From a virus: DNA of 11,338 bases. Position 1 is the first letter of the stretch, and each line of letters opens with the position of its first letter. The DNA is taken from the IMG/VR virus record IMGVR_UViG_3300020227_000052, positions 1 to 11,338 of that record. The stretch is one strand, 5' to 3'. Under the pieces are notes generated by a model. It searched no databases, was not told the origin of the DNA, and was given only the letters and a program-made list of their open reading frames with translations. The position numbers and the translations under genes are program-made. Positions 1 to 11,338 of the stretch are shown here, piece by piece.

Positions 1-390
1 ACACACTAGAAAATAAATTACCCAGTTCCCCAATAATATAAATATAAAATTAAATAAAATAATAATAAAAGTTGTGGAAAATATAAAATAGAATGAAAAT
101 AATATAGAAAGAAAATATATAATAAAATTAATTAAAATAAATAAATGTAATATGAAAATGGAAATGTAAAATGAAAAGTAATTGGCAGATAAAATAGAAA
201 ATGAGAATAGTTATAAAAATATAAACAATAAACTGCCCTACACTAACTATACAATAAAATTAATAAAATGTAAATAAATATGCAGTAATTGTAGTGGAAT
301 TTATAGAGTAATTAGAGTGTTGACAATTGGAAAATTAAAGTGGAATGAAATTGGAATGAATGTAGGTAAAATCTTTTTTTAAGGGGTATA
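1..390. repeat. Left inverted terminal repeat (ITR-L), 390 bp, non-coding; presumed protein-primed replication origin
   Basis: 1-390 equals the reverse complement of 10949-11338 with no mismatch found in a block-by-block comparison. Identity stops after AAGGGGTATA (381-390): left continues ACTACATT, right-arm complement continues GAGAAGCA. No ORF longer than a few codons. Very AT-rich with internal short repeats. Confidence 0.97.
341..360. repeat. Tandem direct repeat TGGAATGAA-AT-TGGAATGAA inside the ITR (mirrored at 10979-10998)
   Basis: TGGAATGAA occurs at 341-349 and 352-360, an 11-bp period. Related NTGGAA cores occur at 74-79, 158-163, 294-299 and 327-332. Most of the few G residues in the ITR lie in these motifs. 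Confidence 0.6.
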
Positions 391-403
391 ACTACATTAT
401 ATT

Positions 404-431
404 TTGTGAATGAAAGAAAGTATGTTATAAT
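404..431 (+). promoter_or_regulatory. Early sigma-A-type promoter (TTGTGA - 16 nt - TGtTATAAT)
   Basis: -35 TTGTGA at 404-409, 16-nt spacer containing an extended -10 TG at 423-424, and a consensus -10 TATAAT at 426-431. It lies 14 bp inside the unique sequence after ITR-L and upstream of the first gene. Confidence 0.6.
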
Positions 432-472
432 GACATTACATAGAAATAGTTTATGTAACTAAAATGCAGTAA

Positions 473-481
473 TGCTATATT
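473..481 (+). promoter_or_regulatory. Second extended -10 element (TGcTATATT) immediately upstream of gene 1
   Basis: TGCTATATTA at 473-482 is identical to the core of the 3581 and 6956 promoters. There is no clear -35. The predicted transcription start (~488) falls at the SD of gene 1, so it may act as an operator rather than a promoter. Confidence 0.35.
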
Positions 482-501
482 AATTATGAGGAGTGAATAA
501 C

Positions 502-759
502 ATGTTAGAAACAATGAAGAAACCAGATAATGAAGTGATTAAGGGTATAGGTAAATTCTGTAAGAAATTTAGAGTGGACTATATGAACATGAGTATGACT
601 GAATTTGCAAGAGAACGAGAACTTAAAATGAGTAATGTAAATGCTTTTGAGCGTGGTCATGCAAACAGTATTATATATTTGCTACATTATTATGATGAGG
701 CAGATGATAGCTTGAAACAGTTTTTCATTAACAACGTATTTGAATTATATAAACAATAG
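502..759 (+). CDS. XRE/Cro-CI-type helix-turn-helix transcriptional regulator (85 aa)
   Basis: SD GAGGAG at 488-493 lies 8 nt before ATG 502. The ORF-track start at 493 is a GTG inside that SD, so 502 is preferred. The segment IGKFCKKFRVDYMNMSMTEFARERELKMSNVNAFERGHANS fits the XRE HTH pattern (helix, turn, helix, then E-x-G). It is the first gene of the early operon. TAG stop. Confidence 0.7.
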   Translation: MLETMKKPDNEVIKGIGKFCKKFRVDYMNMSMTEFARERELKMSNVNAFERGHANSIIYLLHYYDEADDSLKQFFINNVFELYKQ

Positions 760-769
760 GAGTGATTGA

Positions 770-1408
770 ATGGCAGGAAAGATAAAAGCAGTTGAGAAGG
801 GGATAAAGAAGGCAGCAGGAAAAGGGGAATTCTTAGCTGAACCCGAATTCAAGGTATTAAAGCAACAGCTTAGAAAAGAAGCAAGGAACGCAAACAAGAA
901 ACTAAAGGCAATGGAACGCAACGGACTGGAAGGAATGCCTGCATATCAAGAAATGAGTGACCTAAACAACAATGGACGAAAAAGGTACTCAACAGCAGGG
1001 GGAAACACCAAAAAGGACGTACAGGCTATGCGTAAGGAATTAGCCAAGATACAACGATTTAACAATGCTGAAACTGGAGGAGTTAAGAAGTCGAGAAACT
1101 ACCTAAAGAAAACAGCTGCAGCCTTTGGAATCAAATATAAGAACACTAAAGAACTAATAGCCAACTCACGTGTTTTCTGGCAGATAGTAAGCAAATTACA
1201 ACAGAAATACGATAATATGAAGGTCGAAGATTCTGAAGAAGTTGTTGAAAAGGTTAAAGAATATTTAGAGAACAACCCTGATGCTATTGATTCAGAAGAC
1301 CCTGAAGCCATAATGGATAACATAATGAAAAATGATACAAACTTAGATTCTAAAAACATTTCAAATGTAAGAGGTACTTTTTCACGTGGGGGAGAGCCGA
1401 GAAGATAA
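770..1408 (+). CDS. Putative terminal (priming) protein, 212 aa; the CDS is solid but the function is assigned mainly by position
   Basis: SD AGGAGTG at 758-764, ATG at 770, TAA stop. It sits directly upstream of the protein-primed polymerase, as the terminal-protein gene does in phi29-type phages. The N-terminal two-thirds is very basic (many K/R) and the C-terminal part is acidic (EDSEEVVEKVKEYLENNPDAIDSEDPEAIMD), like the DNA-binding plus priming-domain layout of known terminal proteins. I recognise no diagnostic motif. Confidence 0.5.
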   Translation: MAGKIKAVEKGIKKAAGKGEFLAEPEFKVLKQQLRKEARNANKKLKAMERNGLEGMPAYQEMSDLNNNGRKRYSTAGGNTKKDVQAMRKELAKIQRFNNAETGGVKKSRNYLKKTAAAFGIKYKNTKELIANSRVFWQIVSKLQQKYDNMKVEDSEEVVEKVKEYLENNPDAIDSEDPEAIMDNIMKNDTNLDSKNISNVRGTFSRGGEPRR

Positions 1409-1434
1409 AAATATGTAACAAAGGAGTGGAATAA

Positions 1435-3564
1435 ATGACTTATGACCTAACATCATTGAAAAGACAAAAAGCCTACAAAAAAGACGGTATAGAATACATT
1501 AATATTGAATGTGCTTTTGATATAGAAACAACAAACACCAAGACAGATACACAAGAGCCGATAGCTTTCATGTACGCTTGGTGTCTAGGATTGAGAAATG
1601 AAAATTTCATGTATTACGGTAGAACGTGGGAAGAATTTTTAGAACTTTGCCGAGACCTAAAAGAACACTTCCAACTAAACGAAGAAAGACGTTTAGTCTG
1701 TTACGTTCATAACCTAGCTTTCGAATTTCAGTTTATGCGTAAATATTTTAATTGGACACACATATTTGCACCTGAAAAACGACAGCCATTAGTAGCACTT
1801 AATGACTTCGGTATAGAGTTTAGGGACTCTTACCGATTATCAGGCAGTGATTTAAACACTGTAGCCAATAACTTAGCCTTTCATGATATTGAGAAGTTAA
1901 AAGGGGACTTGGATTATACCCTTACAAGACATCACAACACAGAACTAACAGCTAAAGAATGGGGCTACATTAAACATGATGTTTTAATATTGTTGTATTA
2001 CATTAATGAGCAATTTGCATACTACAATTATAACATAACTAGGGTACCTTTTACTAATACTGGACGTGTAAGAAAATACGTTAGGGATATGTGTTACAAG
2101 GTACAACCTGATGACTTAAATATATTCGGTAAACCTATTAGAAGCTATAACAAATACAACAGCTATAAACGAATTATGAACGTATTACAATTAACAGCTG
2201 AATCATATCAACAATGCAGAAATGCTTTCATGGGCGGATATGTACATGCTAGTGCTAGAAAGCTAGGGCAGACATTAGAGAATGTAACCTCAATTGATAT
2301 TACCTCTTCATATCCTGCCGTAATGGTTAGTGAAAAATTCCCTATGAGTAAACCGTTTAAAGTTGATGTGTCCGACCCTGATTTTAATTTTAGGGATTAC
2401 TTTAACAATACTAACTTAAATCTAGTATTTACAATCAAACTAATAAACCCAATGAACAAATTAGAATACGATTATGAAAGCTATATTTCAGAAAGCAACT
2501 GTGAATATATCTCTAATCCGATAACACACAATGGACGTGTATTCAGTGCTGATGAATTGATTCTAACTATCACTGATGTTGATTTTGATGTAATAGAAAA
2601 AACTTACGAATGGGACGAAATACAGTTTGCTAACATGTATTACTTTTACAATGACTACCTACCTAAACCAATCATAAAATCAATTATGAAGCTATATGAA
2701 GACAAAACACAGCTAAAAGGTATAAAAGGTAAGGAATTAGAATATTATCTAAATAAGAGCATGCTAAACGCAGTGTATGGCATGACAGTCACTGACATAG
2801 TAAAAGATGATGTAGTTTATGATGAAAACTTAGACGATTGGGAACTAGAAGAAGCTAACATAAATGAAAAAATAAACAGATATAATCACGATAAGAACCG
2901 ATTTCTATACTATCCATGGGGGCTTTTTGTATCGGCATACGCAAGAAGGAACCTATGGGACGGAATCGTGAACATTGGAAATGATTATGTTTATTCTGAT
3001 ACTGATTCTATTAAGTTAGAGAATATAGAAAATCATTATGACTTTATCTATTACTACAATAATATGATAACTGAAAAAGTTCAGGCTATGTGTGAACACT
3101 ATAACTTAGACTATCAAAGACTAGCACCCGAAAATATCAATGGGGAAATTAAACCTATAGGCATTTGGGAAGTTGACGGAACTTATTCTAAATTTAAAAC
3201 ACTAGGGGCTAAACGTTATCTAGTAGAACATAAAGACAGTAAAGAATTAGAAATAACACTTTCAGGTTTAAACAAAAAAGACGGTGTGAAATATCTAAAA
3301 CAAGAGTTTGGAACTAACGAAAATGTATTTGAGAACTTTGATAATTATTTATATGTTCCTGATGAGTATTCAGGTAAGCTAGTTCATTACTATATCGAAA
3401 AAGAACAGTTAGCTAACATTACAGATTATCAAGGCAACACAGTAGCAGTAAAAGCACCCTCAGGGCTTCATTTAGAGCCTACACATTTTACTTTAAGTTT
3501 GCCATTAATAGCTAAAGAAATAATAGATAATGCAGAAAAAGGCTATATTATAACGTCATTATAA
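1435..3564 (+). CDS. Protein-primed family-B DNA polymerase (709 aa)
   Basis: SD AAGGAGTGG, ATG at 1435, TAA stop. All motifs are visible: Exo I FDIETT (D29, E31); Exo II HNLAFEF (N93, F96, E97); Exo III YIKHD (Y178, D182); motif A DITSSYP (D288); motif B KSMLNAVYG (K441); motif C YSDTDS (aa 520-525, nt 2992-3009); KxY LGAKRY (K593, Y595). The long A-to-B and B-to-C spacers match the TPR1/TPR2 insertions of protein-primed enzymes. Confidence 0.97.
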   Translation: MTYDLTSLKRQKAYKKDGIEYINIECAFDIETTNTKTDTQEPIAFMYAWCLGLRNENFMYYGRTWEEFLELCRDLKEHFQLNEERRLVCYVHNLAFEFQFMRKYFNWTHIFAPEKRQPLVALNDFGIEFRDSYRLSGSDLNTVANNLAFHDIEKLKGDLDYTLTRHHNTELTAKEWGYIKHDVLILLYYINEQFAYYNYNITRVPFTNTGRVRKYVRDMCYKVQPDDLNIFGKPIRSYNKYNSYKRIMNVLQLTAESYQQCRNAFMGGYVHASARKLGQTLENVTSIDITSSYPAVMVSEKFPMSKPFKVDVSDPDFNFRDYFNNTNLNLVFTIKLINPMNKLEYDYESYISESNCEYISNPITHNGRVFSADELILTITDVDFDVIEKTYEWDEIQFANMYYFYNDYLPKPIIKSIMKLYEDKTQLKGIKGKELEYYLNKSMLNAVYGMTVTDIVKDDVVYDENLDDWELEEANINEKINRYNHDKNRFLYYPWGLFVSAYARRNLWDGIVNIGNDYVYSDTDSIKLENIENHYDFIYYYNNMITEKVQAMCEHYNLDYQRLAPENINGEIKPIGIWEVDGTYSKFKTLGAKRYLVEHKDSKELEITLSGLNKKDGVKYLKQEFGTNENVFENFDNYLYVPDEYSGKLVHYYIEKEQLANITDYQGNTVAVKAPSGLHLEPTHFTLSLPLIAKEIIDNAEKGYIITSL

Positions 3565-3576
3565 AGCCACTGATTT

Positions 3577-3594
3577 GTTTTGCTATATTATATA
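3577..3594 (+). promoter_or_regulatory. Extended -10 promoter of the packaging/portal module (GTTTTGCTATATTATATA)
   Basis: TG at 3581-3582 and -10 TATATT at 3584-3589, with no recognisable -35. The 18-mer is identical to 6952-6969. It lies in the 58-bp gap between the polymerase stop and the ATPase start. Confidence 0.55.
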
Positions 3595-3622
3595 GTGAAG
3601 AAAAATAAAGGTGGTACGAATC

Positions 3623-4717
3623 ATGGCAAAGAATCAAAGATATTATAGCTTAGATAATATTCTATCTGTTAAAGCCCAGTACAATATGGTTATAGGGGAA
3701 CGTTCCAATGGTAAAACGTACGGTACTTTAAAACATGCTATAAATGAGTATTTCAACGGTAACGGTGGACAACTTGCGATAGTTAGACGTTGGCAAGAAG
3801 ATATAAGAGGTAAACGTGCTAGTGATATGTTTTCATCACTTAATCAAGATAACGTTATCTATGAACTATCAAATGGGGCATATGAAGGTATTAAATACTA
3901 TGCAGGTAAATTTTATTTCTGTAACTATGATGAAGACGGAAAGGCTTTATATAATGAATCCGACATATTTGCCCATGCTTTTGCTTTATCAGATACAGAA
4001 CATAATAAATCAATTTCATTCCCTAATATTAAAACGATTCTATTTGATGAGTTTATGACTAGGGGAAGTTATTTACAAGATGAATTTATTCTATTTATGA
4101 ATACAGTATCGACAATCGTTAGACAAAGAAAAGACGTAACTATATTTATGTTAGGTAACACAGTAAACAAATATAGCCCTTACTTTAAAGAAATGGGGCT
4201 TTCACGTGTTCAAGATATGAAACAAGGAACAATTGAAGTTTACACGTACGGTAATAGTGATTTGAAGGTTGCAGTTGAATATACAGCACCTACAAAGAGT
4301 AAGAAGGATAGTAACGTGTACTTTGCTTTTGATAACCCTAAATTGAATATGATTACGAGTGGTAGTTGGGAGTTAGATTTATACCCTCATTTACCAGTTA
4401 AATATAACTACTCAAACATTGAATTTATTTATTTCATTAAGTTTGACGATAATATTTATCAAGCAGAAATTATTCATAAAGACGGGGAAATGTTTACGTT
4501 CATACACGATAAAACAACACCGATTAAGAATGAAGATGATTTAGTTTATTCGTTGGAATACAGTCACAAAATGACACACCAACGAAACATATTAAGACCA
4601 AAAAACAAACTAGAGAGTAATATAAAATACTTCTTTGATATAGACAAGGTATTTTATCAAGATAATTCCGTAGGGGATAGCATAAACAACTACTTAAAAG
4701 TATGTAGTGGAATGTAA
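3623..4717 (+). CDS. DNA encapsidation (packaging) ATPase, phi29 gp16-like (364 aa)
   Basis: SD AAGGTGG at 3608-3614 lies 8 nt before ATG 3623. The ORF-track GTG at 3611 lies inside the SD. Walker A is VIGERSNGKTY and Walker B is KTILFDEFM. The flanking LAIVRRW and LGNTVNKYSPYF match, as I recall them, the gp16 layout (VIGARGIGKS, IYVRRY, IVFDEF, LSNAVSVVNPYF). TAA stop. Confidence 0.92.
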   Translation: MAKNQRYYSLDNILSVKAQYNMVIGERSNGKTYGTLKHAINEYFNGNGGQLAIVRRWQEDIRGKRASDMFSSLNQDNVIYELSNGAYEGIKYYAGKFYFCNYDEDGKALYNESDIFAHAFALSDTEHNKSISFPNIKTILFDEFMTRGSYLQDEFILFMNTVSTIVRQRKDVTIFMLGNTVNKYSPYFKEMGLSRVQDMKQGTIEVYTYGNSDLKVAVEYTAPTKSKKDSNVYFAFDNPKLNMITSGSWELDLYPHLPVKYNYSNIEFIYFIKFDDNIYQAEIIHKDGEMFTFIHDKTTPIKNEDDLVYSLEYSHKMTHQRNILRPKNKLESNIKYFFDIDKVFYQDNSVGDSINNYLKVCSGM

Positions 4718-4734
4718 AGGGGAGTAACAACAGA

Positions 4735-5925
4735 ATGACAAACCAATACGATTGGGGAATTTATAACGGTATTCATGGCATACCTTTCGACAGAACAGAA
4801 AAAGACCGAAACACACGTAACCAAGTCATGTATATGTTAGACCGTAGCTTATTGATGTTTAAATATCATAATCTACCCGAGACACTACCACCAATTGAAC
4901 TTGAAAGACTATTACAAACAAATGGTTTTGCAGGTGTAACCGAAGTGAATGGGGAACTTTACGCTTTCTATGGTGGACTAGGTGGAGAACAGGACGTTTA
5001 CGGAAGACCAACAACAATGGTTATTTCTAATCCAGCTTTAAACTATAACGAAACACTAACAATTGATAGAGACGTAGTTTTAATGCGTAACGATAGTATG
5101 ATGTTAGGTTTAATACCTACATTTGCTAAATACAGTTCAATCATGAATGAGAATGAATTGTCTATGACTTTAGCAAGCATTTCACAACGTGTGAATAATT
5201 TAATTAGTGTTGCTGATGACAACACAGCAGATTCTGCTAAAAAGTATTTGAAACAATTAGAAGAAGGTAAACTAGGTTACATTTTTGAATCTAAGTTATT
5301 TGATTCACTACAAACTAATCCTATGAACAGTTCAGGAGGTTCTAGCATTACTGAACTGATTGAGTTACAGCAATATCTAAAAGCTAGTATGTACAATGAG
5401 ATAGGTTTAAATGCTAACTACAACATGAAACGTGAAAGACTTAACTCTGCTGAAGTCGAAATGAATTCAGACAACCTATATCCGTTAGTAGATAACATGC
5501 TAGAACATAGAAGAATGGCATTAGAACAGATTAATGAAAAATATGGAACTGATATATCTGTAGAGTTTAACTCTAGTTGGGACTATAGAATTAATCAAGG
5601 GGAAAGCATAGACAGTGAGTATTTGGAACAAGCAGATGAACAGAGCCAAGAAGACTTGGGATTCTCTGAACTGGAAGCTAATTCAGATACATTTGAAGAT
5701 GATGAATCAATCGGACAGGAAGAAGAAGCAGAACCAACTGAAACAGTTGAAGAAGCAAGTCAAGAAACTCAAACAGAGCCATTAGATGAACCATTGATAG
5801 AACATAAAGAAGAGTTAGTAGAAGATACTGAACAAAGTGATGAAGAGTTACATTCTAGTTTAGACTTTGAAGAAATTATAGAAGGCTTAGCAAATTTAAA
5901 TAAAGAAAAAGTAAAGGAGCAATAA
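4735..5925 (+). CDS. Portal / upper collar connector, phi29 gp10-like, with an acidic C-terminal extension of about 110 aa (396 aa)
   Basis: SD AAGGGGAG, ATG at 4735, TAA stop. The segments FKYHNLPETLPPIELERLLQTNGFAGV, GGEQDVYGRPT, NEIGLNANYNMKRERLNSAEVEMNSD and EQINEKYGTDISVEF parallel conserved blocks of the phi29 connector as I recall it (WENLPPTINPSFLEK, GQRDVY, LGIKNANLEKKERMVTDEV, KINELYGLNVKVKF). From about aa 288 the sequence is acidic low complexity. Confidence 0.88.
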   Translation: MTNQYDWGIYNGIHGIPFDRTEKDRNTRNQVMYMLDRSLLMFKYHNLPETLPPIELERLLQTNGFAGVTEVNGELYAFYGGLGGEQDVYGRPTTMVISNPALNYNETLTIDRDVVLMRNDSMMLGLIPTFAKYSSIMNENELSMTLASISQRVNNLISVADDNTADSAKKYLKQLEEGKLGYIFESKLFDSLQTNPMNSSGGSSITELIELQQYLKASMYNEIGLNANYNMKRERLNSAEVEMNSDNLYPLVDNMLEHRRMALEQINEKYGTDISVEFNSSWDYRINQGESIDSEYLEQADEQSQEDLGFSELEANSDTFEDDESIGQEEEAEPTETVEEASQETQTEPLDEPLIEHKEELVEDTEQSDEELHSSLDFEEIIEGLANLNKEKVKEQ

Positions 5926-5926
5926 C

Positions 5927-6268
5927 ATGAATATCAGAGATTTATCAGAACAAGATTTAGAAGGTAAAGAAATGTTGAAGTTTGCAAACCAACAAGGTTT
6001 ATTTACTTTGAAACAAATTGAAGATGGTGTAGTAGATACACAAATCGAAGAGCAAGAAGTAGAGGTATCACCAGCAGAGGCAGAGCCTACAGCAGAACCA
6101 GTATCAGAAACACCACAAGAAGATGAACACACTGTAGACCAAACAGCTGAAGAAACTTCACAAGATAATGCTGAAGTACAAGAGGCTGAAACTGAAGACG
6201 GAGAATCAGCAGACACACAAGACAACTATAATGAAACACCTTTAGAAGAAGACGAATTAGACATTTAA
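5927..6268 (+). CDS. Small highly acidic protein (113 aa); putative scaffolding protein
   Basis: SD AAAGGAG lies inside the end of the portal gene, and ATG 5927 is 1 nt after the portal stop, which suggests coupling. 32 of 83 residues in aa 31-113 are D/E, with no K/R. Its size, charge and position in the head module resemble phi29 gp7-type scaffolds. The function is inferred only. Confidence 0.45.
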   Translation: MNIRDLSEQDLEGKEMLKFANQQGLFTLKQIEDGVVDTQIEEQEVEVSPAEAEPTAEPVSETPQEDEHTVDQTAEETSQDNAEVQEAETEDGESADTQDNYNETPLEEDELDI

Positions 6269-6289
6269 TAGTATAGGGGGATTAAATTT

Positions 6290-6922
6290 ATGATACACAA
6301 TCATAAGCAATTAAAAGTATTCGACTTATACAAAAAAGGTAAGGGATTATTTGAGTATATGAACGATATTCAAGCTTTACCTTTTGAAGAGGTATTGGAT
6401 ATTAAAACTATTGATTTATCCTTCATTACCTTTTACGGTAATAGGGATATTTCTTCCCCTATTGAACACATAGTAGGTGAGGAAGTTACAGATGAAAATA
6501 TGAAACAAATAGCCTCTATGCTATACGGATTGTACTATCAGAAATGGACTAATTTGTATGAGATATATAAAGAAGAGGTAGACCTTGATAGTTATGTTTT
6601 AATCACTGATGAAAATATTCAAGATGATGGAACAGAAGAATCTACAGTTACTTCAAGTAATGATGATACATCTACACACAGTGTTACAGGTTACAATTCT
6701 GATGAGTTTGTAGATTCTGAACAAGACACTAATAAAGGTACAGGCAACACACAGAATGAAGGTAAAAATAACAACCTTAGAGATAGACACCAAGAACAAA
6801 GGGGTAACTTAGGCAACAGACTAGATGACAGACAAAAAGCAATTGACGGATTAAACCAAGACGTTATTCAAGAGGTTGTTTTTAAAGATACTGTACAGCT
6901 AGTAGGTAGCTTAATGTTCTAA
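6290..6922 (+). CDS. Hypothetical protein in the structural module (210 aa); possibly a lower-collar/head-tail adaptor or head decoration protein
   Basis: SD AGGGGGA at 6275-6281 lies 8 nt before ATG 6290. TAA stop. The N-terminal ~100 aa looks globular and the C-terminal half is polar low complexity (S/T/D/N/Q-rich) ending in RGNLGNRLDDRQKAIDGLNQ. I cannot assign a family. Its place between the portal/scaffold and capsid genes is the only functional hint. Confidence 0.55.
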   Translation: MIHNHKQLKVFDLYKKGKGLFEYMNDIQALPFEEVLDIKTIDLSFITFYGNRDISSPIEHIVGEEVTDENMKQIASMLYGLYYQKWTNLYEIYKEEVDLDSYVLITDENIQDDGTEESTVTSSNDDTSTHSVTGYNSDEFVDSEQDTNKGTGNTQNEGKNNNLRDRHQEQRGNLGNRLDDRQKAIDGLNQDVIQEVVFKDTVQLVGSLMF

Positions 6923-6951
6923 ATATAATAACAATATAAAATTATTAAAAA

Positions 6952-6969
6952 GTTTTGCTATATTATATA
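6952..6969 (+). promoter_or_regulatory. Extended -10 promoter of the capsid gene (GTTTTGCTATATTATATA)
   Basis: TG at 6956-6957 and -10 TATATT at 6959-6964, with an A/T-rich upstream region and no -35. The 18-mer is identical to 3577-3594. It lies in the 87-bp gap before the capsid gene. Confidence 0.6.
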
Positions 6970-7009
6970 TGATTAGAAAATAAATTAAAAAATCGGGAGT
7001 GCTAAAAAA

Positions 7010-8209
7010 ATGAGAGTACAACAAATATATGAACTGATGAATAAATCAGTAGGGGAAGTATTAGGTCGAGAAGACGTTTTTAAAGAAGATTTATCAAACG
7101 TAGTAGACGTTGGTAAAGAGATTGTAGACACAGACAACGTAGATAATTACGTAAAGAAATTAGTAAACCACATTGGTAAGGTTATTTTTAACGACCGAGT
7201 TTATAAAGGTAATATTCCAAGCGTAGTTATGGACTCATGGGAATTCGGTTCTATCTTAGAAAAAATTAGTGCAGATATTCCTGAAGCATATGAAAACGAA
7301 TCTTGGCAGTTAGAAGACGGTAAACAATACAAACAAGATATTTTCTATCAACCGAAAGTATCAGCTAAATTCTTCAACAGTAAGGTAACTTTTGAAATTC
7401 CTATTTCATTTACTGAATTACAAGTTAAAGAATCATTCTCTAACCGTGAACAGTTAAACGGATTCTTATCTATGCTATTTAACCAAGTTGAAAATGCTAT
7501 GACTATTAAATTAGATAACCTAGTTATGAAAACTATCAACACTATGACAGCTGACACGTTAGCTGATGAATTAGGAAATGATTTATCTAAATCAGGTGTA
7601 CGTGCTATTAACCTATTAGCTTTATACAATGAGCAAAAAGGAACTAGCCTAACAGCTAAAGAGTCTTATAAAGACCCAGACTTTATTCGATTTGCTTCAT
7701 ACATGATTAGCTTACAAAAAGACCGTATGACTAAGATTTCAACACTATTCAACGGTGGTGGCAAAGAACGATTCACACCAAGTGAAAACTTATCAATCGT
7801 ATTGCTATCAGATTTTGCTAGTTCATCAAATGTATACCTAAATTCAGACGTATTCCATAATGAACTAACTTCATTACCAAACCATGAAACAGTTCCTTAT
7901 TGGCAAGGTTCAGGCAAAAATTATGATTTCGAAGACGTTTCAAAAATTAGTGTTAAAACAGCAAACAACGAAAACGTTACTACATCAGGTATCTTAGGTG
8001 TAATGTTCGACACTCAAGCAGTGGGCGTGGCAAACCTAGATAAACGTGTAACAACTAACTATAACGCAGCTGCTGAATTCTATACAAACTACTACAAAGC
8101 AGATGTAGGCTATTTCGTAGATAATAACGAAAACTATGTTGTTTTCTTTGTAGCAGACGGACAAGAACAAACAGAAACTCAAGCTAAAACTAAAACAGCT
8201 TCTAAATAG
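7010..8209 (+). CDS. Major capsid protein, phi29 gp8-like HK97-fold (399 aa)
   Basis: SD GGGAGTG at 6995-7001 lies 8 nt before ATG 7010. TAG stop. It has its own promoter and a strong terminator, as expected for the most abundant virion protein. The N-terminal VGKEIVDTDNVDNYVKKLVNHIGKVIFNDRVY and C-terminal AAEFYTNYYKADVGYF blocks resemble the gp8 pattern as I recall it. There is no Ig-like C-terminal domain. Confidence 0.85.
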   Translation: MRVQQIYELMNKSVGEVLGREDVFKEDLSNVVDVGKEIVDTDNVDNYVKKLVNHIGKVIFNDRVYKGNIPSVVMDSWEFGSILEKISADIPEAYENESWQLEDGKQYKQDIFYQPKVSAKFFNSKVTFEIPISFTELQVKESFSNREQLNGFLSMLFNQVENAMTIKLDNLVMKTINTMTADTLADELGNDLSKSGVRAINLLALYNEQKGTSLTAKESYKDPDFIRFASYMISLQKDRMTKISTLFNGGGKERFTPSENLSIVLLSDFASSSNVYLNSDVFHNELTSLPNHETVPYWQGSGKNYDFEDVSKISVKTANNENVTTSGILGVMFDTQAVGVANLDKRVTTNYNAAAEFYTNYYKADVGYFVDNNENYVVFFVADGQEQTETQAKTKTASK

Positions 8210-8218
8210 ATAAAGCCG

Positions 8219-8254
8219 AAAGGGTAGGGGACTTAAAGCCCTTACCCTTTTTTT
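8219..8254 (+). terminator. Rho-independent terminator after the capsid gene
   Basis: The stem AAAGGGTA-GGG (8219-8229) pairs with CCC-T-TACCCTTT (8239-8250), giving 12 bp with one bulged T and a 9-nt loop. It is followed by a T-run through 8254 (7 consecutive T from 8248). Confidence 0.85.
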
Positions 8255-8255
8255 A

Positions 8256-8705
8256 ATGCAAGGGGGAACACCATTGGAAATAAGATTATATTATACAAGA
8301 AATGCAAATAACACAATTAACAAAGTATTAGAAAATGAAAGGGTATTTCAAATCAATTTTAAAGATATTGCAGATGAAATAAACCCAACCGTTAAAATCA
8401 AACACAATGAGAAACTAAAAGTAAATTATGCTTATATACCAGACTTTGAAAGATATTATTTTATAACTGATATTGAAGTATATCCAACAGCTATCAATAC
8501 ATTAAGTTTAGAAGTAGACGTATTAGAATCATTCAAAGAAGATATTTTAGAATCTAATGCTACCGTTTCACGTTCTAAATATTCAAATGAATATTTTGAT
8601 GGTGGAGATTACAGAGCTGAAGAACGTAAAGAGCATATCATTTATGAGAGTGATACAGAGGTAGAGTTTGAAAATAACACAATATTGGTAACGATAGGAG
8701 GATAA
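8256..8705 (+). CDS. Tail knob protein, N-terminal-domain fragment (phi29 gp9 N-terminus-like), 149 aa
   Basis: KVNYAYIPDFERYYFITDIEVYPTAINTLSLEVDVLESF parallels the gp9 N-terminal block as I recall it (SYIMFQN..NKWFYAFVTELEF...HFEIDVLQTW). ATG 8256 abuts the terminator T-run and has no SD. The in-frame TTG at 8274 has SD AGGGGGA (8261-8267) 6 nt upstream and may be the real start. TAA stop at 8703-8705. Confidence 0.65.
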   Translation: MQGGTPLEIRLYYTRNANNTINKVLENERVFQINFKDIADEINPTVKIKHNEKLKVNYAYIPDFERYYFITDIEVYPTAINTLSLEVDVLESFKEDILESNATVSRSKYSNEYFDGGDYRAEERKEHIIYESDTEVEFENNTILVTIGG

Positions 8706-8708
8706 CAG

Positions 8709-10703
8709 ATGGGAATATATTGGGCTTTAAAGTTTATTAACGAAGATGACACAGCTACCTTTACGAAAACGACCCATTATATAGAAGAAGGAACAATAGT
8801 TACCGTAACTGCTAATGATGGTTATGTGTTAGATACAATTAAATTAGAAACACCATTCTATACAGAAACAGTACCAAGTTCAGTTGTACAAGGTAAGCAA
8901 GAAGTTGAATTCAATCCAAGAAAATATATCAGAGATACAGCTACAACTAAAAACCTCACAATGACCGTGACTACTTCAGAAGTAGAAGTAGGGCAAGTAG
9001 TAACCTATACGTATGATTTAGATGATGGATTATATTCAAAATTTGATAAAGATGTAGTAGAGAAAACAGATGTTATTGAAATAGGTGCTAAGGATTATTA
9101 CAGGTTTAAAGGTAATATAGAGGTTACATTGAACGATAAAACAAGTAACTACAACCTTGAAGATAACGAACTGTATTTTAGAGATGAAGGTAAAACCTTT
9201 GCTTTACGAATGGAAACTAAGTGGCGTGATGACCTAGAAAGTGTTCATATTAAAGCACGTTCAGAATCATTCGTAGAATATGCTATTCAGTTATCTAATG
9301 CAGTAACTAATTATTATCTGCCAGAGGTACAAGGTAATGAAGAGATTATAGTATCTGCAAAAGAGAACTATGATTTCAGAAATGGTGTGACAGTTGTTTA
9401 TACACGTAACGGTATTAACGAACGAATCAATTACACACCTAAAAACAACCCCGAATATTTCAGTGAAGACAGCATAGACTTTTATTTAAATATAGCTGAT
9501 GTATGGACTGATGACCTACAAAAAATTGAGGTTATAGCTAATGCTGAAGAGATACCACCACCAAAAGAAGCCTCTATAAGACTTGGACTAGAAAATGCTA
9601 CATCTAACATCACAGGTAAGCATATTAAAGAGAATGAAGATTTAGTGCTTACAGCTGATGAAGGCTTTGAGTTTGGTGATTTAATCAAGATAACCATAAC
9701 AAGACAATTAAACGTAGGTACGACACAAACATATCTCCCTAACTCTGCCAGTGATTCCAAGTATTTCAATGATGATAATACAGTATTCACGCTGAATATG
9801 AGTGAGATTTGGGATTATGATACGTATATCATTTTAGTTGAGGCAAGTGCCAAAGAATCATACAAAGGTGATGACGATGAAGACATCACAGACAGTTCTA
9901 CGGACTTTGCTAACATCTATTACGCTGATAGTGGTATCTTATCAAATATAGCCTCTGAACGTTTCTCTAAGGCACAGACAGATGGTTTAGAAGGACAGGG
10001 AGATTTACCGATAGATATGGGAAGTTATATATATCAAGTCTATAAATTCCCTCTGAAGTTCACAGATGATTTAATCAGTGAATCAGAAAGTAAAATAAGA
10101 ATGGGATTCTATCCATTAGAGAGTACAAGTCGTTACATGTTGAGAAGTCGAGTTAAATTCGATTTAGGTACGATTACAGTACCCGAAACATACCACAACA
10201 TTTACGACTATAGAGACACACAGTGCCTATTGCATGTACCGTATGCAGAGCCTATAGAGATTGAACCAACGTACGTTATAGGGCAAATGATAGACCTAGC
10301 CTATTTCTTAGACCTTTACAACGGTAAAGTAACGTTAGAAGTGTATTCCGATAAAATAGAAGGTGGATTAGTTCAACGTGAAGAAGTACCCGTTGTATTC
10401 GATATACCGTTCATGCAACCAGAGTACAATAGCGTAGTGAATAAGGTCGGGGGCTATATCAATAACAAGGTTAAAACACCTTACATTGAAGTAGTTAGAA
10501 ACATTCCATATGACCCTAGCACTATATTTGGTAAAGAAGGCAAAGAGTATGACAAGCTAAAAGAGTTTGAAGGTTATGTAGAAGTAGCAGACCTAGACTT
10601 ATCTACCAATGCAAAACGTGAAGAACAAGAACAAATAGAATCATTATTAAGTCAAGGCGTAATCATTAATAAACCACAAGAAAAAACTATAATTACTGAA
10701 TAA
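8709..10703 (+). CDS. Tail knob / receptor-binding tail protein: four tandem ~95-aa repeat domains plus a gp9-like C-terminal region (664 aa)
   Basis: SD AGGAGGA at 8696-8702 lies 6 nt before ATG 8709. TAA stop. It is in the same frame as 8256-8705, separated only by TAA-CAG. Residues ~5-383 form four repeats. The C-terminal end EGYVEVADLDLSTNAKREEQEQIESLLSQGVII resembles the gp9 C-terminal pattern as I recall it ([33 protein letters not shown]). Confidence 0.65.
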   Translation: MGIYWALKFINEDDTATFTKTTHYIEEGTIVTVTANDGYVLDTIKLETPFYTETVPSSVVQGKQEVEFNPRKYIRDTATTKNLTMTVTTSEVEVGQVVTYTYDLDDGLYSKFDKDVVEKTDVIEIGAKDYYRFKGNIEVTLNDKTSNYNLEDNELYFRDEGKTFALRMETKWRDDLESVHIKARSESFVEYAIQLSNAVTNYYLPEVQGNEEIIVSAKENYDFRNGVTVVYTRNGINERINYTPKNNPEYFSEDSIDFYLNIADVWTDDLQKIEVIANAEEIPPPKEASIRLGLENATSNITGKHIKENEDLVLTADEGFEFGDLIKITITRQLNVGTTQTYLPNSASDSKYFNDDNTVFTLNMSEIWDYDTYIILVEASAKESYKGDDDEDITDSSTDFANIYYADSGILSNIASERFSKAQTDGLEGQGDLPIDMGSYIYQVYKFPLKFTDDLISESESKIRMGFYPLESTSRYMLRSRVKFDLGTITVPETYHNIYDYRDTQCLLHVPYAEPIEIEPTYVIGQMIDLAYFLDLYNGKVTLEVYSDKIEGGLVQREEVPVVFDIPFMQPEYNSVVNKVGGYINNKVKTPYIEVVRNIPYDPSTIFGKEGKEYDKLKEFEGYVEVADLDLSTNAKREEQEQIESLLSQGVIINKPQEKTIITE

Positions 10704-10715
10704 CTTAATTTGATT

Positions 10716-10743
10716 TTGTAAAACTGTATAAATATGTTATATT
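10716..10743 (+). promoter_or_regulatory. Orphan sigma-A-type promoter downstream of the last gene (TTGTAA - 16 nt - TGtTATATT)
   Basis: -35 TTGTAA at 10716-10721, a 16-nt spacer with TG at 10735-10736, and -10 TATATT at 10738-10743. It shares TATATTATATA with the 3584 and 6959 promoters. No ORF follows. Confidence 0.55.
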
Positions 10744-10749
10744 ATATAT

Positions 10750-10835
10750 AGGTCAAGAAGTTATTCACTTCTTTTATGTTTTAAAATTTTATTTTTCATT
10801 TCCTAAGACTAGGTACCGCCACCTAGTCTTTTTTT
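10750..10835 (+). ncRNA. Candidate small non-coding RNA of about 85 nt (promoter-to-terminator unit without an ORF)
   Basis: The predicted start is near 10750. Hairpin 1 is AAGAAGT/ACTTCTT (10755-10761 pairs with 10767-10773, 5-nt loop). A U/A-rich linker contains the self-complementary TTTTAAAATTTT (10779-10790). Hairpin 2 is the terminator at 10805-10835. The longest ORF inside is 2 codons. Confidence 0.35.
10805..10835 (+). terminator. Rho-independent terminator at the end of the late region
   Basis: A perfect 10-bp stem AAGACTAGGT (10805-10814) pairs with ACCTAGTCTT (10821-10830) around the 6-nt loop ACCGCC. The T-run at 10829-10835 has 7 T. Confidence 0.88.
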
Positions 10836-10948
10836 ATATCTTCCATCACAACCCCACTCATCCTTTTAATATAAGCAAAGAAAAGAATTTAGGTATTAAC
10901 TATCCTATTTACTATTTAATCCTACAGAATAACTCACAGTTGCTTCTC

Positions 10949-11338
10949 TATACCCCTTAAAAAAAGATTTTACCTACATTCATTCCAATTTCATTCCACT
11001 TTAATTTTCCAATTGTCAACACTCTAATTACTCTATAAATTCCACTACAATTACTGCATATTTATTTACATTTTATTAATTTTATTGTATAGTTAGTGTA
11101 GGGCAGTTTATTGTTTATATTTTTATAACTATTCTCATTTTCTATTTTATCTGCCAATTACTTTTCATTTTACATTTCCATTTTCATATTACATTTATTT
11201 ATTTTAATTAATTTTATTATATATTTTCTTTCTATATTATTTTCATTCTATTTTATATTTTCCACAACTTTTATTATTATTTTATTTAATTTTATATTTA
11301 TATTATTGGGGAACTGGGTAATTTATTTTCTAGTGTGT
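10949..11338. repeat. Right inverted terminal repeat (ITR-R), 390 bp
   Basis: Exact reverse complement of 1-390, ending ...CTAGTGTGT-3'. Confidence 0.97.

Follow-up and report, generated by a model that had tools for sequence, protein, structure and literature searches.

A complete 11.3-kb podophage genome of the phi29 superfamily without recognisable lysis genes

Absence of lysis genes from a minimal podophage genome

The 11,338-bp stretch of viral DNA analysed in this study (IMG/VR virus record IMGVR_UViG_3300020227_000052, positions 1 to 11,338; in the following called the window) is the genome of a minimal podophage, one of the Astrithrvirus-like members of the phi29 superfamily, in which we found no recognisable gene for host lysis. 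Its ten open reading frames (ORFs), all located on the plus strand and spanning positions 493–10703, encode replication functions (a terminal-protein candidate and a protein-primed family B DNA polymerase, PolB), a packaging ATPase, a complete small virion, a regulator-like protein, and an acidic protein (Table 1). Searches against Pfam, PHROGs, and NCBIfam identified only PolB, the gp16-type ATPase, the connector, and the major capsid protein (MCP) among the ten products, the Pfam matches PF05894, PF05352, and PF25622 all lying above the Pfam cut-offs. No match to a lysozyme, amidase, CHAP, M15, M23, or holin family was obtained for any of the ten with these three databases; the lysins of related phages were readily found by the same search tools. 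Hydropathy analysis revealed no transmembrane segment in the ten products either, with a highest Kyte–Doolittle mean over 19 residues of 1.17 at a threshold of about 1.6, and none in the called proteins of three other lineages of the same clade, which reached at most 1.31. Finally, a comparison of AlphaFold2 models of the tail protein with the PDB via Foldseek resulted in no hydrolase fold. The original prediction, made from the sequence alone, that the genome lacks a recognisable holin, endolysin, tail hydrolase, or membrane protein was thus borne out by hydropathy, profile searches, and the fold search of the tail protein, and of the checks which it had proposed, the profile searches of all products turned up neither a holin nor a hydrolase, and the scan of small ORFs in all frames gave no conserved overprinted membrane-protein gene.

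Completeness of the genome

The window (G+C content of 32%, with a range of 32–35% within its clade) is bounded by inverted terminal repeats (ITRs) that are perfectly complementary over 390 nt (100%), compared with 119–219 bp in the phages of the Astrithrvirus group. Two contigs from other samples in the Logan collection align to the window at positions 358–10981 with 94% identity (L004) and at positions 3722–10981 with 93% identity (L005), both ending 33 nt into its ITR. The termini of L004 and of two further genomes of the clade, L010 and L087, consist of exactly 30 nt of perfect inverted repeat each, while L088, a contig assembled by megahit, has a terminal repeat of 141 nt. Contig ends of 30 nt correspond to the k-1 overlap that a de Bruijn assembler leaves at the boundary of an inverted repeat, so that the ITR boundaries are reproduced in other assemblies. 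In addition, exact look-ups located proteins of the clade on very many contigs, a single variant on up to 82 of them, and the longest of these contigs had 11,476 bp. Based on the ITRs, the reproduced boundaries, and this upper length, the window is a complete linear genome which is very unlikely to lack a piece, and the absence of lysis genes is no assembly artefact. This agrees with the original prediction of a complete tailed-phage genome, for which the ITRs at both ends and the independent contigs now speak together.

A genome that is incomplete or bipartite, with its lysis genes on unassembled sequence, is accordingly very unlikely in our view. ITR-bounded genomes assemble poorly, and pattern scans of IMG/VR and JGI metagenomes for a second molecule sharing the ITR boundary gave only chance matches, the window's own contig lying outside those collections. 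On the other hand, the repeats are perfect over 390 bp, three Logan contigs from different samples stop 30 nt into the repeat on both sides, none of the very many contigs of the clade exceeds the 11,476 bp given above, and 11.3 kb is near the size of related genomes (11.2–12.2 kb). As to the space left for further genes, the largest coding gap of 87 bp that had been reported is correct between genes (6923–7009), but 102 non-coding bases precede gene 1 and 245 follow the tail gene; the latter region (10704–10948) holds a conserved promoter and a terminator and no ORF.

Lysis cassettes of related phages

The closest named phages form the Astrithrvirus group, namely Salmonella phages astrithr, Astrid, and assan, DU_PP_III of Pectobacterium, and Phanie of Acinetobacter. 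Like the window, they have linear genomes of 11–12 kb with ITRs and show the same order of genes for a regulator-like protein, a terminal-protein candidate, PolB, ATPase, connector, a small collar, MCP, and, split between two genes, a tail knob that bears immunoglobulin (Ig)-like domains. Identities to the window amount to 48–49% for PolB (over 95–98% of its length), 54–58% for the ATPase, and about 57% for the MCP. Unlike the window, these phages have Gram-negative hosts and possess a CHAP lysin, a YvrJ-like protein, and two to four reverse-strand genes at the right end. In astrithr, Phanie, and DU_PP_III, the CHAP lysin gene directly follows the tail gene, with an additional CW_7 repeat in Phanie, and a YvrJ-like protein of 62–70 amino acids (aa) with a single transmembrane segment is encoded after the ATPase.

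The closest relatives that bear a lysis cassette are two uncultured phages from IMG/VR, L006 (UViG 3300002898_000123) and L007 (UViG 3300027510_000195), which share 68–72% identity with the window in the MCP and 63–67% in the ATPase. Both harbour three genes, for a phage lysozyme of 169 aa and for an LLH-like (85–88 aa) and a YvrJ-type (62–65 aa) membrane protein, located between the connector gene and the gene for a 204-aa protein, the homologue (34% identity) of the window's 210-aa protein. In the window, this slot is filled by the gene for the 113-aa acidic protein. In a further IMG/VR contig (L009), an M15 peptidase is encoded on the reverse strand at the right end. Since the lysis genes of the relatives occur at varying positions, the cassette is mobile, and the window's clade has lost what its relatives have kept.

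More distantly, phi29 and the staphylococcal picoviruses (Salasmaviridae, Rountreeviridae) have PolB, the gp16 ATPase, the connector, the MCP, and a gp9-type knob in common with the window. Phage phi29 differs in its genome size of 19 kb and in its holin gp14, endolysin gp15, and tail lysin gp13; its genes for appendages, head fibre, and single-stranded and other DNA-binding proteins (SSB/DBP) are all absent from the window.

To what extent lysins occur across the wider family was estimated by a scan of species-representative genomes, which gave 73 further loci, mostly on contigs of 10–13.5 kb. Clusters for CHAP, M15, or lysozyme were present in 13 of 46 near-complete genomes; among the 33 others, three are members of the same clade as the window. 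When 110 representatives of non-core clusters from the remaining 30 were compared with Pfam, the search revealed M23 twice and Amidase_3, an endolysin-like domain, CW_7, LysM, and a holin once each. Recognisable lysins are missing from many members of the family, some of whose contigs may be incomplete.

Tail protein and 210-aa protein

The original prediction had also considered that lytic activity might be hidden in the 210-aa protein or in the C-terminal half of the tail protein. In the AlphaFold2 model, residues 23–384 of the tail protein form four tandem beta-sandwich (Ig/FN3-like) domains (pLDDT 80–93), for which Foldseek against the PDB returned only strings of FN3, Ig, and sushi domains. 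Conservation with the relatives is confined to about residues 400–653. A model of the C-terminal domain (residues 385–664), based on an alignment of 72 sequences, reached a pLDDT of 76 and a pTM of 0.69. Its top five PDB matches were all to phi29 gp9, though weak (Foldseek, E 0.02–0.08), and in BFVD it matched the Astrid homologue (5e-22), followed by podovirus proteins annotated as "major tail proteins". None of the 72 homologues (0/72) carried a lysin domain. The family profile of the adjacent 149-aa protein matched the N-terminal parts of the C1 major tail protein (4EO2, E 0.0012), of phi29 gp9 (5FB4, E 0.01), and of the chain 8EGS_Y ("Major tail protein", E 0.11). Thus, modelling predicts that the tail protein is composed of four Ig-like domains and the C-terminal part of a gp9-type tail knob. 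A split knob with lateral Ig-like domains has been described for the Astrithrvirus group (PMC11476376, section 2.6), and a knob of the same type, encoded by two genes of which the larger carries the Ig-like domains, is present in the window.

For the 210-aa protein, an alignment of 38 family members contained no invariant column, and only G50 and W86 reached 90% conservation, which is unlike an enzyme family. Profile searches of the PDB with the tail protein, the family of its C-terminal domain, and the 210-aa family gave nothing significant. A comparison of these families via hhalign with the single sequences of phi29 gp9, gp11, and gp13, which is an insensitive approach, resulted only in a weak, co-linear match of the 210-aa family to the lower collar protein gp11. 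Based on this similarity, and on the small lower collar known from phages of the Astrithrvirus group (PMC11476376), the 210-aa protein is probably a small lower collar and no enzyme candidate.

We therefore regard a hydrolase or pore former concealed in one of these two proteins, beyond the reach of sequence methods, as highly improbable. It could be argued that the 210-aa protein has no solved homologue and that parts of the C-domain model are of low confidence, and the knob protein gp9 of phi29 is known to carry a membrane-active loop. Both the tail C-terminal domain and the 210-aa protein are, however, parts of the family core which occur side by side with separate lysins in relatives, and neither the missing invariant residues of the latter nor the Ig/FN3-like N-terminal part, the gp9-like C-terminal fold, and the lysin-free homologues of the former leave an obvious place for such an activity.

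Overprinted reading frames

A lysis factor overprinted on another gene had been named as a further option. Open stretches that span 25 codons or more and contain a hydrophobic window were collected from all six frames, and their retention in the other five genomes was checked. On the plus strand, no alternative-frame ORF with a transmembrane segment turned out to be conserved across the four lineages, so that this option gained no support. The candidates at positions 4377–4541, 6363–6470, 6603–6710, and 3299–3379 kept their hydrophobic windows in only zero to three of the five genomes; in the best of them (4377–4541, three of five), half of the hydrophobic window precedes the first start codon. 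The reverse strand displayed many hydrophobic stretches, as expected opposite an A-rich coding strand. The most conserved of these, an antisense ORF of 93 aa inside the MCP gene (7348–7629), was rejected as a hidden holin, as it is equally open in relatives that have a holin. Its counterpart comprises 122 aa in L006 and 174 aa in L003 and is cut to 57–58 aa in the clade members L010 and L013, and stops in this frame arise only at MCP codons for Tyr, His, or Gln. We regard it as a by-product of sequence constraints on the MCP. The ORFs within the ITRs do not exceed 31 aa, are hydrophilic, and were likewise discarded as lysis genes.

Independently of these ORFs, a stretch of the MCP gene (7310–7445) revealed a synonymous-codon identity of 0.87 among six clade genomes, compared with a baseline of 0.71 for the gene. 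This peak, which does not overlap the hydrophobic segment of the antisense ORF, could reflect an RNA element or a recombination tract.

Host assignment

Several lines of evidence point to a staphylococcal host. In the assembly GCA_035794555.1 of a Staphylococcus xylosus isolate, contig JAMWLJ010000015.1 is a genome of the sister lineage, L089, which fills the whole contig of 10,740 bp, bacterial flanks being absent. This lineage carries an additional gene at the left end (L088, 271–582; L089, 130–441), encoding a DUF7335 protein of 103 aa with 38–40% identity to TreJ. All 284 matches of this gene in the phage database came from phages of staphylococci, i.e., 283 Staphylococcus phages and one Silviavirus record; among the matches listed, the genomes had 139–154 kb, and several were annotated with TreJ in the long terminal repeat. 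We take these large genomes to be Kayvirus-type myophages. The G+C content of 32–35% fits staphylococci as well. Thus, the host is most likely a Staphylococcus of the S. xylosus type, i.e., a coagulase-negative staphylococcus, as judged from sequence relationships, with the window's own lineage assigned by kinship only. With such a thick-walled host, the missing lysin is more striking, not less.

The first option of the original prediction, that the host is wall-less (Mollicutes) and a lysin unnecessary, is extremely unlikely after this analysis. It had drawn on a resemblance in size and ITR layout to Mycoplasma phage P1, and the low G+C content of 32% would suit it. However, among the 3,308 codons tryptophan is encoded by TGG 22 times and by TGA, its codon in genetic code 4, not once, although 275 TGA triplets are present in other frames, and all ten genes end with TAA or TAG. 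Within the Mollicutes, Acholeplasma and Phytoplasma differ in that they follow the standard code. Besides the S. xylosus sister genome and the staphylococcal treJ, the nearest cassette-bearing relatives encode lysozyme and holin-like proteins and hence infect walled hosts.

Conservation of the lysis-less layout within the clade

The layout without lysis genes was found in at least four lineages, represented by the window and L004, by L010, by L087, and by L088, L089, and L090. At the nucleotide level, the window is 78% identical to L010 and 68–77% identical to L087, L088, and L089 across the aligning segments. Synonymous sites are saturated between the window and L010 or L088 (dS, the synonymous divergence, of about 0.6–2.7), and the ratio of non-synonymous to synonymous divergence (dN/dS) is 0.05–0.26 in all scorable genes, with 0.05 for the terminal-protein candidate and 0.18–0.26 for the acidic protein; the only exception is the terminal-protein gene of L088 (0.36), which has diverged strongly. 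Saturation, purifying selection, and the recurrence of the same gene set in four lineages argue for a stable lifestyle and not for a defective deletion mutant. The lysis-less gene set has been retained long-term under purifying selection.

Apart from this, the genomes differ in some modules. Comparison of L088 (849–3557) with the window (770–3564) revealed identities of 30% for the terminal-protein candidate and 55% for PolB, compared with 75% for the connector and 78–86% for the ATPase, the MCP, and the 210-aa and 149-aa proteins, which indicates a swapped replication module and modular recombination within the clade. In L087, a strongly basic ORF of 37 aa (MADNNKQTQELYNAINDLKNKGIKSVSELARDKHKKK) at positions 5690–5803 stands in place of the gene for the acidic protein.

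Possible routes of host lysis

Tentatively, we infer that the lysis function is provided in trans. A helper phage infecting the same cell, or a resident prophage that has been induced, would lyse the host and perhaps also provide cell-wall penetration, while the phage would replicate and package itself and then exit via the holin and endolysin of its helper. We lean towards helper dependence, which was not among the three options of the original prediction, because a mobile cassette has been stably lost, because kinship and a shared tail plan link the phage to a proven satellite, because the sister lineage shares a gene with large Staphylococcus phages, and because it has persisted in the culture of an isolate. 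The occurrence of treJ in the sister lineage as well as in the large Staphylococcus phages is consistent with co-infection.

Satellites without lysis genes are known. P4 leaves its host through the lysis system of its helper. Streptomyces phage Ando is another satellite without lysis genes which relies on a helper (PMC13587820). Small genome size, capsid-related genes of their own, lack of lysis genes, and, if our proposal holds, exit through a helper are common to both and the window. In contrast, neither P4 nor Ando has tail genes, P4 also lacks capsid genes, and both integrate or replicate as plasmids, whereas the window has the genes for an entire virion and for replication by protein priming. 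A closer parallel is Acinetobacter phage Phanie, whose PolB is 49% identical to that of the window and whose genes are arranged in the same order. According to the passage of PMC11476376 that cites Pourcel et al. 2024, Phanie is a satellite which needs the helper myophage Aci01-1 and binds to its tail, and section 2.6 of the same work suggests that relatives with an Ig-decorated split knob and no fibres may behave in the same way. Phanie and the window share the split tail knob with lateral Ig-like domains, the absence of fibres and spikes, and their own genes for capsid, replication, and packaging. They differ in that the dependence of Phanie, proven as far as the cited passage describes it, concerns infection via the helper tail, and in that Phanie has its own lysin and putative holin; the dependence proposed for the window would extend to lysis.

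Several points weigh against helper dependence. A helper phage was not identified, and co-occurrence with one was not seen. Phanie keeps its own CHAP lysin and YvrJ-like protein, so that this precedent covers dependence and not the loss of lysis. Unlike classical satellites, the window possesses genes for a full virion as well as for replication of its own, and treJ belongs to the sister lineage and is absent from the window. That a sister genome is part of an isolate assembly might just as well be due to the carrier state of an autonomous phage, comparable to the equilibrium described for the staphylococcal podovirus phiAGO1.3 (PMC6346686).

Alternatively, the phage might be autonomous, with one of its ten soluble products bringing about lysis in the absence of both holin and endolysin. 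This task might fall to the acidic protein, to the terminal protein, or to a structural protein that has a further function, and the factor could block cell-wall synthesis or unleash staphylococcal autolysins. The A2 maturation protein of Q-beta, for example, blocks MurA, and lysis by a single gene is the rule in the Microviridae and the single-stranded RNA phages, within whose size range the window falls. Stability of the gene set under purifying selection in four lineages, the abundance of the clade, which suits a self-sufficient virus, and the position of the acidic protein in the slot of the relatives' lysis cassette would also be in line with such a factor. However, none of the ten products resembles a known lysis protein in Pfam, PHROGs, or NCBIfam, the unrelated basic ORF of L087 indicates that the acidic protein is no universal factor, and the other nine genes are common to relatives that still need cassettes of their own. 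To our knowledge, no tailed phage lyses its host via a soluble single protein. We consider this alternative somewhat unlikely as a whole; we hold it unlikely that an autonomous phage both enters and lyses a thick-walled Gram-positive host by means of a soluble or moonlighting protein, with neither holin and endolysin nor a virion lysin.

Quite improbable, in our opinion, is a non-lytic or carrier lifestyle, in which growing staphylococci would maintain the genome as a linear episome replicated by protein priming, with virions escaping only upon cell death or autolysis. Such a lifestyle would match the unintegrated 10,740-bp contig of the S. xylosus isolate assembly and the small, regulator-like product of gene 1, and linear plasmid prophages with protein-primed replication do occur among the tectiviruses. 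On the other side, Pfam and PHROGs revealed no recognisable partition, integration, or repressor module, the gene 1 family is also present in isolates of the Astrithrvirus group, astrithr and Phanie among them, and we know of no tailed phage with non-lytic release.

Implications

A holin–endolysin pair is regarded as a requirement for tailed double-stranded DNA phages whose hosts have a cell wall. Here, an abundant and evolutionarily stable clade with full sets of virion and replication genes, most likely infecting a Gram-positive host, has no lysis genes. If the clade is helper-dependent, the lifestyle of a Phanie-type satellite podophage would extend from Acinetobacter to staphylococci and from entry to exit, and the whole family of 11–13 kb phages in gut, rumen, and food metagenomes may consist of hitch-hikers. 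If it is autonomous, it would conceal a novel mechanism of lysis and perhaps also a novel target against staphylococci, and a soluble factor would represent the first single-protein lysis strategy in the Caudoviricetes. With 11,338 bp, the window is smaller than the 11.6 kb cited for the smallest tailed-phage genome (bioRxiv 10.1101/2025.06.18.659913), and it helps to define how few genes, nine or ten, make up the minimal set of a tailed phage. What is new is an Astrithrvirus-like phage of the phi29 superfamily in a Gram-positive host, as assigned above, without a lysis module; its clade is absent from INPHARED and PLSDB, where neither megablast with the whole window (INPHARED) nor tblastn with the MCP (PLSDB) resulted in a match.

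Gene inventory and transcription signals

The features of the window are compiled in Table 1.

Table 1. Genes, terminal repeats, and predicted transcription signals of the 11,338-bp window
Feature	Position	Strand	Evidence and remarks
Left ITR	1..390	.	80% A+T; longest ORF 31 aa, hydrophilic
Early promoter region	404..484	+	TTGTGA-16-TG-TATAAT at 404–431; TGCTATATTAAT motif at 473–484
Gene 1, early protein of 85–88 aa	493..759	+	Helix-turn-helix look by eye, possible regulator; no Pfam match
Terminal-protein candidate, 212 aa	770..1408	+	Immediately ahead of PolB, an arrangement shared by relatives; 33% identical to astrithr gp02
PolB	1435..3564	+	PF03175 (1.4e-12); phrog_1907 (1.6e-75)
phi29 gp16-type DNA packaging ATPase	3611..4717	+	PF05894 (4.9e-19); phrog_2150 (2.9e-29)
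Connector (upper collar)	4735..5925	+	PF05352 (7.8e-18); phrog_2038 (5.8e-38)
Acidic protein, 113 aa, possibly scaffold-like	5927..6268	+	No database match (Pfam, PHROGs, tblastn against phages)
Core protein of the 210-aa family	6290..6922	+	54 family loci
phi29-type MCP	7010..8209	+	PF25622 (1.4e-52)
149-aa protein, N-terminal part of gp9-type tail knob	8256..8705	+	Family profile matches
664-aa tail protein, Ig-like domains and C-terminal knob part	8709..10703	+	AlphaFold2, Foldseek
Short non-coding transcription unit	10716..10838	+	Promoter TTGTAA-16-TG-TATATT, AGGTCA start, intrinsic terminator; predicted RNA of about 85 nt
Right ITR	10949..11338	.	Complementary to 1–390

The family of gene 1 comprises 19 loci, and tblastn of its product against phages gave no match. 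While the ORF was called from a GTG at position 493, a GAGGAG at 487–492 and an ATG at 502 fit the 85-aa product found in other assemblies, so that the gene probably starts at 502. The 212-aa product remains a terminal-protein candidate by position and by homology to astrithr gp02, and a counterpart exists in the Astrithrvirus group (PMC11476376). The connector ends in an acidic C-terminal extension of about 110 aa.

With respect to transcription, four copies of an extended -10-like motif, TGYTATATTAWW, are present, all of them on the plus strand, against 0.15 occurrences expected, and none of 200 shuffled sequences reached four. The sites at 473–484, 3581–3592, 6956–6967, and 10735–10746 lie upstream of gene 1, of the genes for the ATPase and the MCP, and of a small RNA unit, respectively, a placement that suggests four transcription units. 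The small RNA unit contains no ORF and has a conserved AGGTCA at its start; its transcript is predicted to fold into a small hairpin at the 5' end, followed by a linker rich in A/U and by a strong terminator (10805–10830 plus a T-run). Its promoter and the terminal T-run are kept in all four lineages. The GC-rich terminator hairpin is kept in the window and L004, in L010, and in L088 despite sequence changes, and it does not appear in the fold of L087. An Rfam search of the window gave no match to packaging RNA (pRNA) or any other family; the transcript might serve either as a counterpart of the pRNA or in regulation.

Further observations on the phage family

A more distant relative is represented by L011 (1–5706) and L012, whose tail protein is 39% identical to that of the window. 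In these two, the reverse strand carries the genes for the regulator, the terminal protein, and PolB. They lie immediately upstream of the MCP gene, and no gene for the ATPase, the connector, or the 210-aa protein intervenes. This layout is either that of a rearranged genome or of a chimeric contig.

In 13 genomes of the family, a conserved protein of about 120 aa is encoded at the left end (cluster 11, e.g., L019, 376–741, and L025, 521–877). At the right end of other genomes, the reverse strand encodes protein families of about 100 aa, which could match the SSB-type early proteins described in PMC11476376. The window has neither, hence it lacks these accessory replication genes of its relatives.

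Overall, the family of 10–13.5 kb phages is widespread (L014–L086), with many contigs in bins of metagenome-assembled genomes (MAGs) from gut, rumen, and faeces. As its contigs were binned together with very different phyla, even with Methanobrevibacter, MAG bins are unreliable for host calls in this family. At least five different family contigs were also found in the isolate assembly of Herbiconiux daphne CPCC 203386.

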